DNA of 45,744 bases from a virus. The notes under the pieces are model-generated. The model was not told the DNA's origin. It did no database searches and worked only from the letters and a program-made list of their open reading frames with translations. The translations under genes and the position numbers were made by a program. The stretch lies in IMG/VR virus record IMGVR_UViG_3300017716_002598, positions 1 through 45,744 of that record, one strand, 5' to 3'. This document shows positions 6,663 to 34,541 of this stretch, piece after piece; position 1 is the first letter of the stretch, and each line of letters begins with the position of its first letter.

Positions 6663-6809
6663 TCAGCCCATCTCCGGGTCGCCGTCGTTAAGGGTGCCAG
6701 GATCGGGCCGGCGGTCTGTCGCTGACCTTGGAACCGGGTGGCCGACGCGGGCCTGATAGCGCGCGAACTTGGCGCTGGCCCTGCGGTTCAGCCCCCGGTT
6801 CGCCTCCAT
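6663..6809 (-). CDS. Possible small ORF (48 aa) in the 227-bp gap
   Basis: Translated by hand: MEANRGLNRRASAKFARYQARVGHPVPRSATDRRPDPGTLNDGDPEMG. G+C at the third position is high, but there is no convincing Shine-Dalgarno sequence. Confidence 0.25.
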   Translation of the reverse strand: MEANRGLNRRASAKFARYQARVGHPVPRSATDRRPDPGTLNDGDPEMG

Positions 6810-6838
6810 GAACAGGAGGTGGGCGAAGGGGGCGAGGG

Positions 6839-8077
6839 TCATGCTGCGAACGCCCGGCGCTCTTGCGGGACGAACGAGACGCCCTCTGCATCGTGGCCGC
6901 GCCGGATCGCGTCATAGACCATCTGGATCGGGACCGTCCGCCTTCCGATGTCGCCGTAGGTCCGGCTGCGGAACACAAGGCTCATGCTCTGCCGGGCGCG
7001 ATAGCCGCTCTCCTTGTGCCACTTGTCGCCTCGAGCGAGGGTGTTCCATGACTCGATGATGATGCCGTTCCGCTCCTTGACCGACATCTTGTGATGGATG
7101 TGGCCGACGTCGACGTAGTGGAAAACCGTCTCGGCGAAGTCCTGCTTGAAGTCGGACATCATCACTTCGGCCAGCCGCTCAATCGGGCAACGGTCGCTGT
7201 GGTGGGTCATCACCAGCGTCTTGCCCATCCGGTAGCCGATGAAGACGCTCTCGTTGTCGATGACGTGGACTCGCCCGCTCTCGGCATAGGCCACCGTCAG
7301 CAGTTCGTTCATGTAGAGATCGCCGAACCGGCTGTGATTGCCCTGGTTGATGATGACATCGACGTTCCGGGCCTTCGTCAGCGCGAGGTCGATCACGAAC
7401 CGCATGACCTTGCTGGACGTGCGGATCATCAGCCGGGGCCGCTGGGCGTCCAACGGAACGCGGGACCGGGCCGTCAGCTTCTCGGTGTTCTCGATGTGGT
7501 CGCGGTCGCCGAGGTCGTTGACCACGATGCGCTCGCAGGGCTCGATCTGGTCGATCAGCAGCCGGAACGCCGCGCACATTTCGCGCTCGGCAATCTCGAC
7601 GTTGAAGTCTGCGCCGGCCTCCGCTTCGTGGGCCAGCATCCCGATATGAGCGTCACCGATCTGAATCCACGGCACCACGTCGTAAGACGGGTCCGGGCAG
7701 GAGAAGGCCGGGACGACAATCGGCGTCTCCATGAAGGCGGCGACACCTTCGCGGATCAGGTCTTGCGCCGCGGCGTCCGGCGATTGCCTTTCCCAGACCC
7801 GCTCGACCCCACCGGGACCGCGCTGGATGGTAACCTTGCCCATCCGATAGCCGGGGGCCGTGCCGTCGTTGAAATGCCCCGGCGCGTGGCCGTGACGGGC
7901 GGCGGCTCTCTTGTAGGTGTCCAACGCCTCCCAGACCGCGTTGGGGGCCACACCGAGCGCCCTGGCCGCGGCGCGTTGGGTGCCGTGTTCCTTGACGGCT
8001 TCCAGATATTTGATCTGGGTCTCGGTCACCCAGCGGGGATACTTGTCGTCTTCGAGGGGAACGAAGGACAGGGCCAT
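6839..8077 (-). CDS. N-terminal HTH fused to a calcineurin-like metallophosphoesterase
   Basis: The HTH is around residues 20-55 (TQIKYLEAVKEHGTQRAAARALGVAPNAVWEAL). The full metallophosphoesterase motif set follows: GDAH (141), GDRDH (190), GNH (246), THH (291), GHIHH (325). Confidence 0.7.
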   Translation of the reverse strand: MALSFVPLEDDKYPRWVTETQIKYLEAVKEHGTQRAAARALGVAPNAVWEALDTYKRAAARHGHAPGHFNDGTAPGYRMGKVTIQRGPGGVERVWERQSPDAAAQDLIREGVAAFMETPIVVPAFSCPDPSYDVVPWIQIGDAHIGMLAHEAEAGADFNVEIAEREMCAAFRLLIDQIEPCERIVVNDLGDRDHIENTEKLTARSRVPLDAQRPRLMIRTSSKVMRFVIDLALTKARNVDVIINQGNHSRFGDLYMNELLTVAYAESGRVHVIDNESVFIGYRMGKTLVMTHHSDRCPIERLAEVMMSDFKQDFAETVFHYVDVGHIHHKMSVKERNGIIIESWNTLARGDKWHKESGYRARQSMSLVFRSRTYGDIGRRTVPIQMVYDAIRRGHDAEGVSFVPQERRAFAA

Positions 8078-30269: not shown

Positions 30270-30711
30270 CCCCGCTCAAGGTGGCGATCTCCGCCGCGAG
30301 CTCTTCGTCCGAGAGGTGCGAGAACGTATGCGCCACGCGTTGAACCGGGGCCGTCTTCGGGGCCATCCGAGCCGCGGCCCACTTCAAGGCGTCGAGGTAA
30401 ACGCGCGCGCCGGCCGGGTCGATCTTGTGACCGTTGACCGATTGGCCGAGCGCCGCAGCCTTGGTGACGGTCAGCCCGTCCTCTTGCAGCGTCTCGGCCC
30501 GTTCCTCGCGCGCGCTCGCGTATTGTTGGCGGCGGCCCTCGTCTTGATTGATCCAGGTGTGCGCCGACGACGGGTCGATCCCAAGTTTGCGACAGGCGGC
30601 ACGAAGCGACTTCCCGGAGCCGATGATCGCCATCATGGGGGCGAGGTCTTCGGCGGTCGGGCGGCGCTTGCCTTCCTCCGCGGCGTCCTGGACTTCGTTG
30701 TTCTCGCTCAT
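30238..30711 (-). CDS. terS: Terminase small subunit
   Basis: An HTH region (SLRAACRKLGIDPSSAHTWI...YASAREERAE) lies directly upstream of terL and overlaps it. Confidence 0.75.
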   Translation of the reverse strand: MSENNEVQDAAEEGKRRPTAEDLAPMMAIIGSGKSLRAACRKLGIDPSSAHTWINQDEGRRQQYASAREERAETLQEDGLTVTKAAALGQSVNGHKIDPAGARVYLDALKWAAARMAPKTAPVQRVAHTFSHLSDEELAAEIATLSGDADDAPADED

Positions 30712-31625
30712 GCGACCTTGACGAGCCTCATTCCGTATTCGTTGGGGGCGGGGTCGAGGTTGAGGTCGGGGCGGCGGATCAGGCGTTGGCGCTTGAACCG
30801 GGAATAGTCGACGTGATGGTGAACCCGGCGATAGCGGAAGATCACCTCCGCGACGTCGGGATGAACGGCCGCCAGCATCTTCGACTTAGCGACCGTGCCC
30901 GTGTCCGCGTATTTCTCGCCGGCCCGGACCGTCCCCTCGGCGTGGTAGAACTCCGCAGTGTTCCCCCCCGGTAGCTTCTGGGTCTCCATCTTCTCTTGCA
31001 GGAAGGCGTTGAACTGGATCGTGCACCAGCCGGCCTTGAGCATATCGAGCGAGAGGATCGTGTCCTCGTTGTATCGGCCGCGCCAGCGGAAGGGGGCGTC
31101 GTTGCGGATCAGGTTGCAGGAATAGATGCGGGTGTTCGCGACGAAGGGCGGGCGCTTACATTTTCGCTCGGCGAACATGAAATAGTTGGGGCCGGCCATC
31201 GCGACGTTGAGATAGCGAAGGGTGAAGTCCTCCATCGCCGCCCAATAGCCGGGGCTAGTCGTCCTGACCTTGAGGTTATGGTTCCAGCGGAAGAACCAGA
31301 TGATGTTGTCATCCATCACCCAATGCCAGGCGTGGCCCGCGGCGATGGAGTGTTCCCAAGCGAAGTTGCGGGCCGGGCCGGGGCCGGTGCTTTTCGAGAG
31401 GCCGAGGTCGTCGCAGAGCTCGTAGCGATCCTTGAAGGAGAGATCGAGCGGGAGGACGGTCGCGAGGAGGTCCATTGACCGGATCGCGGTCTCGTATGCC
31501 TCGACCTCCTGGGGCTCAACGACAACGAAGTGGGGGACGCCCATCCGGGTTAGGGCCTTGCTCGTCACCATATAGGCGGAGCGGCCCTTCGAGACGATGT
31601 AGAGCGGGAAGCGGGGGTTATTCAT
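30708..31625 (-). CDS. GT-A-fold nucleotide-sugar transferase-like protein (TAGT-like?)
   Basis: The N-terminus is PLYIVSKGRS. The sequence GPGPARNFAWEHSIAAGHAWHWVMDDN matches the GT-A pattern ARN...A.G....hhhDD(D/N). It is coupled to ParB (8-nt overlap) and to terS (ATGA). Confidence 0.5.
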   Translation of the reverse strand: MNNPRFPLYIVSKGRSAYMVTSKALTRMGVPHFVVVEPQEVEAYETAIRSMDLLATVLPLDLSFKDRYELCDDLGLSKSTGPGPARNFAWEHSIAAGHAWHWVMDDNIIWFFRWNHNLKVRTTSPGYWAAMEDFTLRYLNVAMAGPNYFMFAERKCKRPPFVANTRIYSCNLIRNDAPFRWRGRYNEDTILSLDMLKAGWCTIQFNAFLQEKMETQKLPGGNTAEFYHAEGTVRAGEKYADTGTVAKSKMLAAVHPDVAEVIFRYRRVHHHVDYSRFKRQRLIRRPDLNLDPAPNEYGMRLVKVA

Positions 31626-32244
31626 ACCGCTTGTCGGCGTATCGCTCGATCTGGATTTCGGGATACCAGACGAAGCGGGTCTTCGACGTGATCGCGAACT
31701 CGGTCATGGTCGTGAAGGCGTCGACCGCGGCTTGGTCGGGAAAGTGAACGACGAGCGACCGGAACGCCTTTTTGTCGGTCTGGGAGAACTCCGGCATCCC
31801 TTGCCATTCGGCTTCGGCGTCGTTCTCGCCTTCCTCGCGCGGGAGGAGGAGGTTCTGAATCTCCCCCGCGTCGAAGCCGATCAGGTCCAGGTCATACCCG
31901 CCCTCGGCGAGCGCCTCGATTTCGGCACGGAGGGCGTCGTCATCCCATCCGGCGTTGAGGGCCAGCTTGTTGTCCGCGATCACATAGGCCCGGCGCTGGG
32001 CTTCGGAGAGGTGGTCGAGGACGAGGACCGGGACGGTTGCGAGCCCGAGGGATTGAGCGGCGAGAACCCGTCCGTGCCCGGCGATGATCCCGCCTTCGGC
32101 GTCGACGAGGACCGGGTTGGTAAACCCGAACTCGGTGATTGAGGCGGCGATCTGCGCGACCTGGGCCTCGGAGTGCGTCCGGGAGTTCCGGGCATAGGGC
32201 GTCAGGTCGGCAATCGGCCGCTGCTCGAGGTCTTTCGGGGTCAT
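31618..32244 (-). CDS. ParB/Srx-like N-terminal domain protein lacking the usual methyltransferase domain
   Basis: ParB-type motifs are present (LTPYARNSRTHSEAQVAQIAASI...IIAGHGRVLAA). The EWQGMPEF...VVHF......F linker is normally followed by an N6/N4 DNA methylase in phage ParB-methyltransferase fusions. Confidence 0.7.
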   Translation of the reverse strand: MTPKDLEQRPIADLTPYARNSRTHSEAQVAQIAASITEFGFTNPVLVDAEGGIIAGHGRVLAAQSLGLATVPVLVLDHLSEAQRRAYVIADNKLALNAGWDDDALRAEIEALAEGGYDLDLIGFDAGEIQNLLLPREEGENDAEAEWQGMPEFSQTDKKAFRSLVVHFPDQAAVDAFTTMTEFAITSKTRFVWYPEIQIERYADKRYE

Positions 32245-32256
32245 GCGTCCTCAGGT

Positions 32257-32333
32257 CTTCGCCCCGACCGCGCCGGTTGGATCGCTGCTCTGTCGGGCGT
32301 AAATCGGTCGATCACCGCGGGGTCGGGGCGAAG
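32257..32333 (-). promoter_or_regulatory. Large leader stem-loop abutting the Shine-Dalgarno sequence of the first late gene
   Basis: An 11-bp and a 5-bp helix (32257-32272 paired with 32316-32333, with a 2-nt bulge) enclose a 43-nt loop. The 3-prime arm ends 12 nt before ATG 32244, just before GAGGA. Confidence 0.6.
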
Positions 32334-32564
32334 GTGAACCAGTCCCGGCTGTGACCGCCTTGCCGGGCTACATGAAACGGCCGAAGCCGCCCCGCGCCCC
32401 CGGTGCGCTTCCCGCGCTAAGGCCGGTCGGAATCAGCCCTCGGCCGGGGCAGGACGCTGCGAGAATAGGCGCGGGGCAGTAAGGGGTGAGCGCCCGTCCC
32501 CGGTTCGGCCTTGCGGCTAGGGGGCGATCTGCGCTCGTGCCGGGGCCTGTATCGCCCGGCGGAT

Positions 32565-32598
32565 GCAAAAACGGCCCCGGCCGGTGAAGGCTGGGGCC
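32565..32598 (-). terminator. Intrinsic terminator between cassette B and the late leader
   Basis: Minus strand: GGCCCCAGCC-ttcacc-GGCCGGGGCC (one G-U pair) followed by GTTTTTG. Confidence 0.75.
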
Positions 32599-32633
32599 GA
32601 TCTGGTCGCGTCTTGCGCGTATGGGCTTCTGCA

Positions 32634-32642
32634 CACGTTACC
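32634..32642 (-). promoter_or_regulatory. Fourth GGTAACGTG box (operator, or -10-like TAACGT)
   Basis: The 9-mer is identical to the boxes at 41279-41287 and 42188-42196. It lies 10 nt after the stop of ORF 32652..32870 and 36 nt before the terminator hairpin. Confidence 0.5.
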
Positions 32643-32651
32643 GCTCCGCTG

Positions 32652-32870
32652 TCAATCCGTAGGGGGTCGGGGCGCACAGGACGCTAGTTCTTGCGCCCAC
32701 GCCGCCGGGGACAGCTTGAGGGCCATTAGGACCGCCCTCGCCGCAGGACCGGACGGCCCGACTGTGGCATAGTTCTGTGCGGTCTTCGGGCTGACCATGA
32801 GCCACCGGCCCGCAGCCTGCTGCGACAGGCCGAGGGGTGCGAGGGCGGCGCGGTATTCAGCGGGGGTCAT
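32652..32870 (-). CDS. XRE-type helix-turn-helix protein B4 (72 aa), last gene of cassette B
   Basis: MTPAEYRAALAPLGLSQQAAGRWLMVSPKTAQNYATVGPSGPAARAVLMAL fits the short XRE HTH pattern. ATG 32870 is ATGA-coupled to the upstream ORF. Confidence 0.6.
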   Translation of the reverse strand: MTPAEYRAALAPLGLSQQAAGRWLMVSPKTAQNYATVGPSGPAARAVLMALKLSPAAWAQELASCAPRPPTD

Positions 32871-33046
32871 TCGGGCAACTCCGAACAAAACACGATTTCC
32901 GCACCGGGCGCATAAATCGCGACAAGATCGCGGGCGGTTTCCTTCATGTCGGACCAGCACTCTCCGTCCACATCAAACTGACGACCATCCTCTAGGGTCA
33001 GCAGCGCCCATTTTGCCGTTTGCCGCTCAAGGTGAACCTCACGCAT
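32867..33046 (-). CDS. Hypothetical small protein B3 (59 aa)
   Basis: ATG 33046 is preferred over 33097, which would give a long overlap. No similarity recognised. Confidence 0.5.
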   Translation of the reverse strand: MREVHLERQTAKWALLTLEDGRQFDVDGECWSDMKETARDLVAIYAPGAEIVFCSELPE

Positions 33047-33275
33047 GAACGTTGCGTCCCGTTTCAACAAAATGCCGAGCGTTGAGCGCCGAAGCATATT
33101 CCTTGCGAAGCTGCGCCAGACGACGCTCCTTGCGGGATTCTTTGTCGTCCGACGCCTTCACGGCTTCCGCTTGCTGCACGATACCGGCCATAACAGCGGT
33201 CCAATCGGTCTTGGCAAGCGCGCGGCGCTGGACCTTTCCCTTAGCAGCGTCCGAAAGGTCAATGTATCGGGCCAT
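33039..33275 (-). CDS. Hypothetical small protein B2 (78 aa)
   Basis: The protein is charged and helical. It is preceded by AGGAAACAGACAG directly before the ATG. No similarity recognised. Confidence 0.6.
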   Translation of the reverse strand: MARYIDLSDAAKGKVQRRALAKTDWTAVMAGIVQQAEAVKASDDKESRKERRLAQLRKEYASALNARHFVETGRNVHA

Positions 33276-33324
33276 CTGTCTGTTTCCTGAAGGATGGAGA
33301 GGCGGGGCCGAAGCCCCTGCCGGG

Positions 33325-33585
33325 TTAGTCAGCCATCGCGCGTTGGTAAGCGTAGGCTTGCGAACCCTCTAGGTCGCGAACGATGCGGGCGAGACCGGGC
33401 ATCGTCGGACCGTCAGAACCGCAAAAGTATGTTTTACCGGCGACAGACCGGAGCATCAAATGAATGTCGGGCGAGGTCGGCGGCCCGGCCCAGTTTGTGC
33501 AATGAATGAGAACGCCGACGCAGGAGCCGTCTTGCATCAGGGCCGATTCTTCGGCGTTCAGGGGGATGGCGTTATAGCTGGTCAT
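33325..33585 (-). CDS. Hypothetical small protein B1 (86 aa)
   Basis: Preceded by the same GGAAACAGACAG 12-mer before the ATG. No similarity recognised. Confidence 0.6.
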   Translation of the reverse strand: MTSYNAIPLNAEESALMQDGSCVGVLIHCTNWAGPPTSPDIHLMLRSVAGKTYFCGSDGPTMPGLARIVRDLEGSQAYAYQRAMAD

Positions 33586-33646
33586 CTGTCTGTTTCCGTC
33601 CGGCTAGTGCTTGATTGCCCTGCGCCGATGAAGTGACCCTAAGCAC

Positions 33647-33689
33647 ATTTTACGCAGGTCGCAATAGGCGGTTGCGTATTATTTACGCA
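33647..33689 (-). promoter_or_regulatory. Candidate promoter of cassette B, with the same box geometry as cassette A
   Basis: Minus strand: TGCGTAAATA (33689..33680), 4 nt, GCAACC, 17 nt, TAAAAT (33652..33647). The inverted repeat TACGCA-N16-TGCGTA lies at 33651-33678. The ATG is 61 nt downstream. Confidence 0.5.
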
Positions 33690-33749
33690 GCGGACAAGCG
33701 GGAGGACAACCTGTCCGCCACTGTCCCCCCGTTTTGTCCCGGCGTCCCG

Positions 33750-34541
33750 CTATTCCAGACCATACGCGACGGCCGCGCAGTCCAGCGCCAGGACCAGGGC
33801 CACCGAAATGCTAGCCTGCACCGAGCCGCTGTTGCTCAACGAGCGCAGATTAGAGCCCTTACCGGCGATCTCTCGCAAGGCCCAGACGGCCCGGCCGGTG
33901 CGCTCGACGGCGGTCCTGCCGTTCGCGCCCTTGAAGGTCCGGTCCTCCTCCTGGATCAGCTTCTCCAAATCTCGGACGAACAGTTCCCGCTCGGTCCGCT
34001 TGGCGGCCCAGCCTTCGCCGCCCCGCGTGATATTCCGCGACTGGTCGATGGCCGGCGGGGTGAGCCCCTTCTCCGGGTCGAGGAGTTCGTAGTCCGTGCG
34101 GAACCGGAGCCCGGCCGCATACTGGTTTGGCGAGAGCGACCGGGTGGTCATCAGGGTCTCAAGCCCGTCGCGCGAGGCAATGCGCTTCCGACCTTCGTGT
34201 TCCTTCCGGTCCGAGGTCTCGATCTGCGAGCCCCGGAGGGCTTCGAGCCCCACGGTCTCGGCTATGTCGTTTGCCACCCGGATCGCCTGCTGGGCCGCCG
34301 CGATCTCCTCCTCGAGGCGGAGCATGGCCTCCCGGCCTTCCCGGCGCTGGCGGAGGTCTGGGGACGCCTCGGCTTGGACCGCCTGACGGAACCGGCGGGC
34401 CTGGCCCTCGGTGAGCGTCTGGCCCGATACGGTCAGGGAGCCGTTGTCGTTGGCAATCCCGGCCCCGTTATCGTTTGCCCCGATCATCCGGGGGGCGGAG
34501 GCGCGGGCCTGGCGCTTCTTGCGTTGGCGGGCGGAGGTCAT
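33750..34541 (-). CDS. Hypothetical protein (263 aa), last gene of the early replication operon
   Basis: Codon bias is good and the gene is ATGA-coupled upstream. LSPNQYAAGLRFRTDYE vaguely recalls DUF6456-type proteins (low certainty). Confidence 0.65.
   Translation of the reverse strand: MTSARQRKKRQARASAPRMIGANDNGAGIANDNGSLTVSGQTLTEGQARRFRQAVQAEASPDLRQRREGREAMLRLEEEIAAAQQAIRVANDIAETVGLEALRGSQIETSDRKEHEGRKRIASRDGLETLMTTRSLSPNQYAAGLRFRTDYELLDPEKGLTPPAIDQSRNITRGGEGWAAKRTERELFVRDLEKLIQEEDRTFKGANGRTAVERTGRAVWALREIAGKGSNLRSLSNSGSVQASISVALVLALDCAAVAYGLE

Follow-up and report, generated by a model that had tools for sequence, protein, structure and literature searches.

An inserted cassette of small genes with a conserved leader and a putative Aca-like regulator in a lambda-like phage genome, and its counterparts in uncultured phages

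The 45,744-nucleotide viral sequence analyzed here over its full length (IMG/VR record IMGVR_UViG_3300017716_002598, hereafter the window) is the genome of a temperate, lambda-like phage with an integrase gene at positions 1122-2366. Between its early and late genes lies a unit of approximately 1.1 kb on the minus strand, composed of a promoter, a leader hairpin, three tiny genes (B1, B2, and B3) and a small putative regulator gene (B4). The four consecutive open reading frames (ORFs) of 86, 78, 59, and 72 residues reported in an initial annotation made from the sequence alone are present at 33325-33585 (B1, the first cargo gene), 33039-33275 (B2, helical and charged), 32867-33046 (B3, the partner of B2), and 32652-32870 (B4), with identical JGI gene calls on two near-identical contigs. 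The B2 stop codon is overlapped by 8 nt by the B3 reading frame, counted from its ATG, and B3 and B4 overlap in the tetranucleotide ATGA. The gap preceding B1 (33586-33749) measures 164 bp and has a G+C content of 58.5%, compared with 67.3% for the window, and the unit, initially described as visibly low in G+C, is indeed the lowest-G+C 1185-bp stretch of the window (0.608-0.616; mean 0.673, standard deviation 0.019). G+C at third codon positions (GC3) is 0.60-0.69 in B1-B3 versus 0.8-0.9 in the neighboring genes.

Upstream of the unit and down to position 33750, the minus strand carries a CII-like gene and genes for a DnaB-like helicase, a DUF1376 primosomal protein, a 55-residue ORF product, and a 263-residue protein (p263); downstream of it follow genes for a ParB_N protein, a TET-associated glycosyltransferase (TAGT), TerS, and TerL and the remaining late genes. 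Scanning of IMG/VR with p263 gave 42 related loci, the junctions of which were compared by tblastn and blastn. The unit is absent from ten close relatives, in which p263 is 84-93% identical at the nucleotide level and the ParB_N gene, where the locus includes it, 85-95%; identities of their late gene products, where covered, reach 98.6% for ParB_N and 84-96% (amino acids) for TerL, with 94% for TAGT in one locus (L003). In these ten relatives, the p263 stop codon is followed by a spacer of about 37-44 bp and then by a conserved element of about 95 bp that corresponds to window positions 32656..32562. For L003, L006, L007, L010, L011, L013, and L029, homology extends up to 33749 and resumes at 32656, 32655, or 32648. 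The cassette proper (promoter, leader, and B1-B4; minus strand) is an insertion at 33748..32657, delimited by these blastn junctions and coinciding with the lowest-G+C stretch. The conserved element (32562-32656, minus strand), which is 82-98% identical in relatives without the cassette, opens with ATTGACA, and the B4 stop codon falls inside its ancestral TTGACA (32655..32650). The hairpin and U-run at 32598..32565, with which the initial annotation had closed the unit, form a strong terminator (-28.4 kcal/mol, z = -3.8; also called by a terminator scan), but the same terminator ends the element in seven of the ten relatives; because it is present there without any cassette, it is ancestral and lies outside the insert. 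The other three, L008, L009, and L012, also without insert, carry at this position a different hairpin without a U-run.

Copies of the cassette from independent samples show a single difference over 1469 nt, and blastn of the region against GenBank phages produced matches to the ParB_N and helicase flanks only. Three further loci (L005, L042, and L054) are 100% identical to the window over the gap down to 33601 and have kept B4 (about 96% identity), with a different 420-bp cargo (ORFs of 59 and 72 residues) in between; the breakpoints of homology with L005 and L042 are found just past the leader (33601) and 12 nt into B4 (32858). The site where p263 meets the terminator element is a hotspot of insertion. 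In addition to the cassettes, a 392-bp insert without B4, encoding a 31-residue hydrophobic peptide and an ORF of about 88-107 residues, occupies the same site in L004 (5958-6349), and in L019, which is more distant, the site contains about 550 bp (6786-7335).

More than 220 protein clusters are homologous to B4; the 120 best that were listed range from 56 to 113 residues in length, and none of them has a Pfam domain or a name. The family shares an almost invariant core, LGLSQxAAGRWLxVSPKTAQNYAxxGPSGPA. The AlphaFold2 model of B4, calculated from the family alignment, consists of five helices with a predicted local distance difference test score (pLDDT) of 93.6, and the top Foldseek matches in the PDB are all XRE-fold regulators (C.Kpn2I, HigA2, Aca1, Aca10, Aca2, ClgR, and P22 c2), with TM-scores of 0.5-0.66 and probabilities up to 0.98. 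The earlier assignment of B4 as an XRE-type helix-turn-helix (HTH) protein therefore holds for the fold but not for membership of the Pfam family, for which B4 stays below the gathering threshold. Searching with the B4 profile against all PDB chains, including Aca1, Aca2, and Aca10, gave no match at E<=10, nor did tblastn of B4 against GenBank phages give any. Among 185,579 species genomes, B4 occurs only in two phage-sized contigs of metagenome-assembled genomes.

We examined 68 loci containing B4. The product of B4 as it closes the cassettes of the family is highly conserved and has 57-72 residues. The gene starts with ATGAC, and the ORF upstream ends in that ATGA at about 55 of the 68 loci; the ORFs directly preceding B4 belong to 32 mutually unrelated families. 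In 60 of the 68 loci, a conserved leader is found 218-1007 nt upstream of B4 on the same strand, and the first cargo ATG always lies 40-42 nt past the leader start. The reverse search, with the exact 25-nt leader in IMG/VR, identified 50 contigs with one copy each, 47 of which have B4 221-1968 nt downstream, the other three being truncated. The interval between leader and B4 contains 103 ORFs (one to three small genes per cassette) grouped in 57 clusters. These cassettes constitute a large, widespread, and undescribed family in uncultured phages. The acr-aca-like layout proposed at the outset is thereby recovered on a larger scale: the same promoter/leader and HTH protein surround unrelated cargo in about 60 viral contigs, and close relatives lack the unit. 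Most contigs hosting the family have a G+C content of 57-59%, which explains how a cassette of low G+C comes to stand in a 67% genome.

The leader is near-invariant over 41 nt, GGCGCAGGGCAATCAAGCACTAGCCGGA(A)CGGAAACAGACAG, and contains a hairpin (33627..33601; CGGC-GC-AG-G-GC-AAUCAA-GC-A-CU-A-GCCG) with an AAUCAA loop and eight pairs, located near the predicted 5' end of the transcript. Over 33 distinct leaders, 98.9% of cells are paired, with compensatory double changes at three of the eight pairs in at least two separate combinations and a G-U pair in one sequence. The covariation score was reached by none of 500 shuffles, and controls slid by 1-3 columns pair at 16-38%. The thermodynamic stability of the single sequence is not significant (z = -1.3), so that the case for the hairpin is made by covariation. 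The unequal lengths of its arms and the G-U pair favor an RNA hairpin over a DNA palindrome. A search of Rfam, with the whole window or with the region at a relaxed threshold, gave no match. A second, variant promoter/leader (TATTGCGTAAC...GGGATAAC...CGGGGCGCGGCAATCAAGCAGCACCCG) occurs 76-77 nt past the B4 stop codon in L050 (5214-5290) and about 17 other loci, where it heads an operon with TerS, TerL, and an SU10-type portal; the hairpin of this variant is the one that bears the compensatory changes. In L063 and L080 there is also a third copy, which is more divergent and precedes B4 by about 1.1 kb.

Anchoring 24 non-redundant upstream regions on the leader reveals TTGCGT at a fixed distance from the hairpin, an ATGTG/TGn motif with a -10-like hexamer after it, and, farther upstream than these, a stretch rich in A. 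By this comparison we infer for the window a promoter comprising the -35-like hexamer TTGCGA (33664..33659; family consensus TTGCGT), a spacer of 16-17 nt, and the extended -10-like element TGc-TTAGGG(T) (33645..33636; family consensus ATGTG-ggAcaa / TGC-TATGTT in the same register), with a predicted start near 33629. A simple scan for the sigma-70 consensus called no promoter in the region. The inverted repeat TACGCA-N16-TGCGTA is present in the gap as previously described, and a second, tighter perfect palindrome, TGCGTA-N5-TACGCA, spans 33689..33673; its exact sequence, TGCGTA-AATAA-TACGCA, is unique in the window. The hexamer TGCGTA/TACGCA occurs eight times in the 45.7 kb, three of them within 39 bp at this place (window-wide Poisson expectation about 2e-5). 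Two of these boxes form the palindrome just upstream of the -35 hexamer, a candidate distal operator, and the third (33651..33656, minus strand), a candidate proximal operator, is located in the promoter spacer, within a box CTGCGTAAAA(A/T)GTGCTT also found in L055-type promoters. Across 31 non-redundant promoters of the family, no other hexamer is as enriched as TGCGTA/TACGCA (34 observed versus 1.1 expected, about 30-fold), which is present two or three times in 10 of the 31, in differing arrangements. Exact IMG/VR matches to the palindrome TGCGTAAATAATACGCA outside the lineage (L045-L047) are located in contigs of 37-45% G+C without leader or B4 and were set aside as chance.

The 3' end of the leader consensus is the 12-mer GGAAACAGACAG, a ribosome-binding region that abuts the ATG of B1 in the window (33597..33586); in about 25 other loci it likewise adjoins the ATG of the first cargo gene. 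The initial annotation had pointed out that identical sequence precedes B1 and B2, and indeed the window contains exactly two copies of the 15-mer GGAAACAGACAGATG, one at each of these starts, a number reached in none of 100 shuffles. The second GGAAACAGACAG abuts the ATG of B2 (33287..33276), and the leader/cargo junctions of L051, L056, and L070 contain, without mismatch, the 20-nt sequence GGAAACAGACAGATGGCCCG found at the B2 start. The second 12-mer and the 20-nt identity suggest that B2, B3, and B4 once stood directly behind a leader; the cassette of the window probably arose when a leader-B1 unit became fused to a leader-B2-B3-B4 unit. Scanning of the window for the leader returned one copy only. 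The second 12-mer is a probable remnant of a second leader. Between B1 and B2, the UUCG-capped, G+C-rich hairpin noted before (33321..33301) folds as described; the surrounding 55-nt region reaches -18.7 kcal/mol, which exceeds the stability of shuffles by a narrow margin (z = -1.96), and the hairpin is not followed by a U-run.

None of the proteins B1-B4 has a significant match in Pfam, PHROGs, NCBIfam, or PADLOC. A full phmmer scan of 1.84 billion representatives yielded two homologues of B1 (63% and 46% identity), with conserved residues common to all three sequences, and for B3 its own cluster only; for B2 there are six homologues, in which the N-terminus MARYIDLSDAA is invariant. The AlphaFold2 model of B1, obtained from the three-sequence alignment, is unusable (pLDDT 47.6), and a weak multi-repeat match of B1 to a repetitive protein of 1331 residues (P0132, E 1e-5) looks compositional and was discarded. 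B2 and B3 recur together in L117-L119 (85% and about 88% identity, respectively) with the same 8-nt overlap. The term orphan initially applied to the three proteins is consequently too strong: B1 has two distant homologues, B2 has six, and B3 travels with B2 elsewhere. In L117 (1054-1686), L118 (77-709), and L119 (273-905), the pair is followed, in the place of B4, by an ATGA-coupled protein of 57 residues that looks ribbon-helix-helix (RHH)-like by eye; the L117 protein has only the first four residues (MTPA) in common with B4. This unit has no leader and lies in reverse orientation between tail-completion-like and major-tail-like genes of a 58% G+C phage or gene transfer agent-like contig. 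The ratio of nonsynonymous to synonymous substitution rates (dN/dS) relative to the L117 copies is 0.056 for B2 and 0.050 for B3, dS being saturating at about 1.4. B4, which those loci lack, has a dN/dS of 0.12-0.38. B2 and B3 are real genes under purifying selection. No membrane segments are predicted in B1-B3, as judged by eye. One of the B1 homologues is the first gene after a divergent promoter on another contig of 67% G+C, adjoining DNA methyltransferases; the promoter region before it (L121, 2073-2263), with methyltransferase genes on both sides, contains three copies of a different operator-like repeat, ATGTATGACA/TGTCATACAT.

Turning to the cargo of the whole family, 51 representatives were searched and have no significant Pfam match, four being marginal (E 0.0009-0.01) and to unrelated families; three match PHROGs, of which one is annotated, as a DNA methyltransferase. 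Two unrelated cargo families of about 210 residues directly upstream of B4 (L049, 410-1051; L073, 3390-4004; and relatives) carry an HPPC motif reminiscent of motif IV of cytosine-C5 methyltransferases; neither has a match in Pfam or the PDB, and one only matches PHROG 757 ('DNA methyltransferase').

The best explanation of the locus is that the cassette was acquired horizontally, through a recombination event that placed it at the junction of p263, the last early gene, with the ancestral promoter/terminator element upstream of the late genes. Taken together, we favor, with a probability of roughly 0.6, an Aca-like, self-regulated, mobile accessory cassette the cargo of which is swapped by recombination. 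Its mode of action might be as follows. A sigma-70-type promoter (TTGCGA, 16-17 nt, extended -10) would start a transcript near 33629, the first 30 nt or so of which would form the conserved hairpin, followed by the fixed ribosome-binding region; B1 would be translated first, then the B2-B3 pair, and B4 would be reached via the ATGA overlap. B4, as a small dimeric XRE-fold HTH protein, would bind the TGCGTA boxes flanking and inside the promoter, and possibly the leader hairpin, and would shut the cassette after an early burst, as Aca proteins do on acr operons. The conserved leader on the 5' side and the conserved start of B4 on the 3' side would serve as homology arms for the exchange of cargo, which may consist of small early-acting proteins aimed at the host. 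By analogy with such operons, counter-defence is the leading guess for the cargo, a tentative one that we would rate somewhat short of even odds; the initial proposal of an anti-defence function found no support, no cargo protein matching a known anti-defence family in Pfam or PHROGs and the sole annotated cargo PHROG being the methyltransferase. More doubtful is an extended version, in which B4 would represent a new Aca-like family reading both TGCGTA DNA and an AAUCAA-capped RNA hairpin, with integron-like shuttling of dozens of counter-defence or host-takeover proteins between unrelated freshwater phages.

Several points weigh against this interpretation. No anti-defence family was found among B1-B3 or the family cargo in Pfam and PHROGs, no dedicated anti-defence library having been searched. 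B4 is a small domain, and its Foldseek E-values are for that reason weak (0.2-3); the Pfam Xre-like-HTH model matches B4 below threshold (E 0.037, 14.8 bits versus a cutoff of 25.8). As the promoters and leaders compared are homologous, the counts of enrichment and covariation overstate the number of independent events. There is no terminator between p263 and the cassette, so that read-through from the early operon also transcribes the cassette. Finally, in SU10-portal-type phages the variant promoter/leader stands 76-77 nt after B4 before the packaging genes, where B4 could regulate timing in general instead of repressing the cassette specifically.

This last point leads to the alternative that fares best, although we still regard it as unlikely, namely that in its native phages B4 regulates middle or late transcription and the genes upstream of it are ordinary early genes of the 'nin-region' type, a piece of which was captured by the phage of the window. 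Such a role would fit the constant position of B4 as the last gene before the packaging/late module, the variant promoter/leader at the head of the TerS/TerL operon in many loci, and the conservation of B4, which far exceeds that of any neighboring gene. It is difficult to reconcile with the ten relatives that have the same late genes and no B4 at the site, which indicates that B4 is dispensable for late expression here, with the single leader copy in the window, or with the exact leader (variant A) being always followed by B4 and never found alone; the TGCGTA box in the promoter spacer moreover suggests repression and not activation. A regulator of the lambda Q or nin type would be required by, and conserved with, the late operon, and the unit is missing in those ten relatives; an essential late regulator, which the initial annotation had kept as an alternative, is excluded for this phage lineage, its closest relatives having no B4 at the site.

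Rather less probable is a toxin-antitoxin, abortive-infection, or superinfection-exclusion moron, in which B3 or B2-B3 would be the effector and B4 the HTH antitoxin or autorepressor, in the manner of HigBA. The order of an effector followed by an ATGA-coupled HTH gene is that of HigBA, HigA2 is among the nearest structures to B4, the phage is temperate, as shown by its integrase (1122-2366) and CII-like genes, and the RHH-like protein after B2-B3 in L117 represents another classic antitoxin fold. However, the invariant core of B4 is associated with 32 unrelated upstream families, whereas antitoxins normally co-evolve with one toxin, and B3 (about 88% identical) is found with B4 in the window and with the unrelated RHH-like protein in L117; on these two grounds the toxin-antitoxin pair suggested initially is disfavored. 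Pfam, NCBIfam, and PADLOC gave no match to a toxin or abortive-infection family or to a PADLOC family, B1-B3 have no membrane segments by eye, and the B4 family is almost absent from bacterial genomes. Typical toxins of the RelE/HigB type have about 85-100 residues, and B3 (59 residues) is shorter. That the ORFs are non-functional passengers in a decaying fragment left by illegitimate recombination, as might be supposed from their G+C and GC3 below those of the rest of the genome and from the very few homologues of B1 and B3, is hardly credible given the dN/dS of about 0.05 for B2 and B3 at saturating dS, the intact leader-to-ATG spacing and ATGA coupling, the single change in 1469 nt between independent samples, and the residues conserved in B1 and its two homologues.

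The surroundings of the insertion site deserve separate mention. The ancestral element (32562-32656, minus strand) combines TTGACA, 17-18 nt, and a -10-like CAGAAG hexamer (CATAAG or CATAGG in relatives) with about 45 nt of short transcribed stretch containing a small CGCG hairpin and ends with the strong terminator. The last early gene is p263 (33750-34541), and the element comes directly behind it in relatives that have no cassette. The arrangement recalls lambda Q, PR', 6S RNA, and tR', and by that analogy p263 and the element may be the real late switch. Assignment of p263 to GafA/DUF6456 was considered and dropped, the matches being sub-threshold (best E 0.023, two of eight members) and no PDB match being found. 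Between the terminator and the ParB_N gene extends a non-coding, G+C-rich (69-74%) stretch of 317 bp (32245-32561) with a 17-nt inverted repeat that is 94% complementary (32257-32273 / 32317-32333); it is variable among relatives, and L003 is longer by 227 bp between the positions that match 32342 and 32334. Further on (30708-32244, minus strand) are encoded the ParB_N-domain protein (208 residues) and, directly upstream of TerS, the TET-associated glycosyltransferase (Pfam TAGT, E 2e-34; PHROG 'beta-glucosyl-HMC-alpha-glucosyltransferase'). The ParB_N/TAGT pair hints at DNA hypermodification.

Provided that B4 is an Aca-like regulator, searches can be made very specific by using its gene and the exact 25-nt leader as handles: with nothing but the leader, 50 viral contigs were recovered, and B4 lies downstream in all 47 whose sequence extends far enough. 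These handles open a large pool of small proteins without family from uncultured freshwater phages that have no characterised anti-defence genes. Should the Aca-like, dual DNA- and RNA-reading role of B4 be true, the 57 cargo clusters would amount to a ready-made catalogue of new anti-defence candidates. The locus moreover captures gain and loss of a cassette and replacement of its cargo among phages of about 90% identity, and the breakpoints at the leader and at the start of the regulator gene document how accessory modules move.

Among known systems, Aca-controlled operons show repression through promoter repeats, RNA motifs in the 5' untranslated region (UTR), control of neighboring operons, and Aca proteins of the RHH type (PMC13551039), and in archaeal viruses anti-defence genes are marked by conserved regulatory sequences (PMC11065993). 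With the acr-aca operons (Aca1, Aca2, Aca10, Aca12, and the RHH-type Aca14), the cassette shares a strong, repeat-bearing promoter, one to three tiny hypervariable genes, and an HTH gene in last position, as well as a structured and conserved 5' UTR, a related motif before a neighboring operon, an RHH-like protein that occasionally takes the place of the HTH (L117), and variable cargo before a conserved regulator (57 clusters; 32 families directly upstream of B4). It differs from them in that B4 has no sequence similarity to the Aca proteins in the PDB or to Pfam, NCBIfam, or PHROG families (Aca families lacking structures were not compared), that the candidate operator half-site TGCGTA and the leader are new, and that the cargo has no known Acr match. 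Controller (C) proteins of restriction-modification systems (such as C.Kpn2I) and HigA-type antitoxins, the best structural matches of B4, are small, dimeric XRE-fold autoregulators acting on repeated boxes in their own promoters; unlike them, B4 has neither restriction-modification genes nor a toxin fold beside it, and its partners change from locus to locus. Phage morons resemble the cassette as autonomous units of promoter, gene(s), and terminator with deviant G+C, placed between two genes of a temperate phage and missing in close relatives, and B2-B3 also occurs as a reverse-oriented insert in a tail operon. The terminator used by the cassette is, however, ancestral, and classic morons do not share a family-wide leader and regulator. 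T4-type phages have PeSL cassettes, in which small ORFs lie between conserved promoter and stem-loop motifs and appear to be inserted, deleted, and replaced by recombination among close phages (PMC2839356, PMC4122927). There, too, the conserved motifs bound the exchanged segments, a functional analogy without sequence relation. PeSLs are composite terminator/early-promoter motifs without a regulator gene in hyperplastic regions of large lytic myoviruses, whereas in the cassette described here the 3' homology arm is the regulator gene itself, and the cassette crosses between unrelated types of phage.

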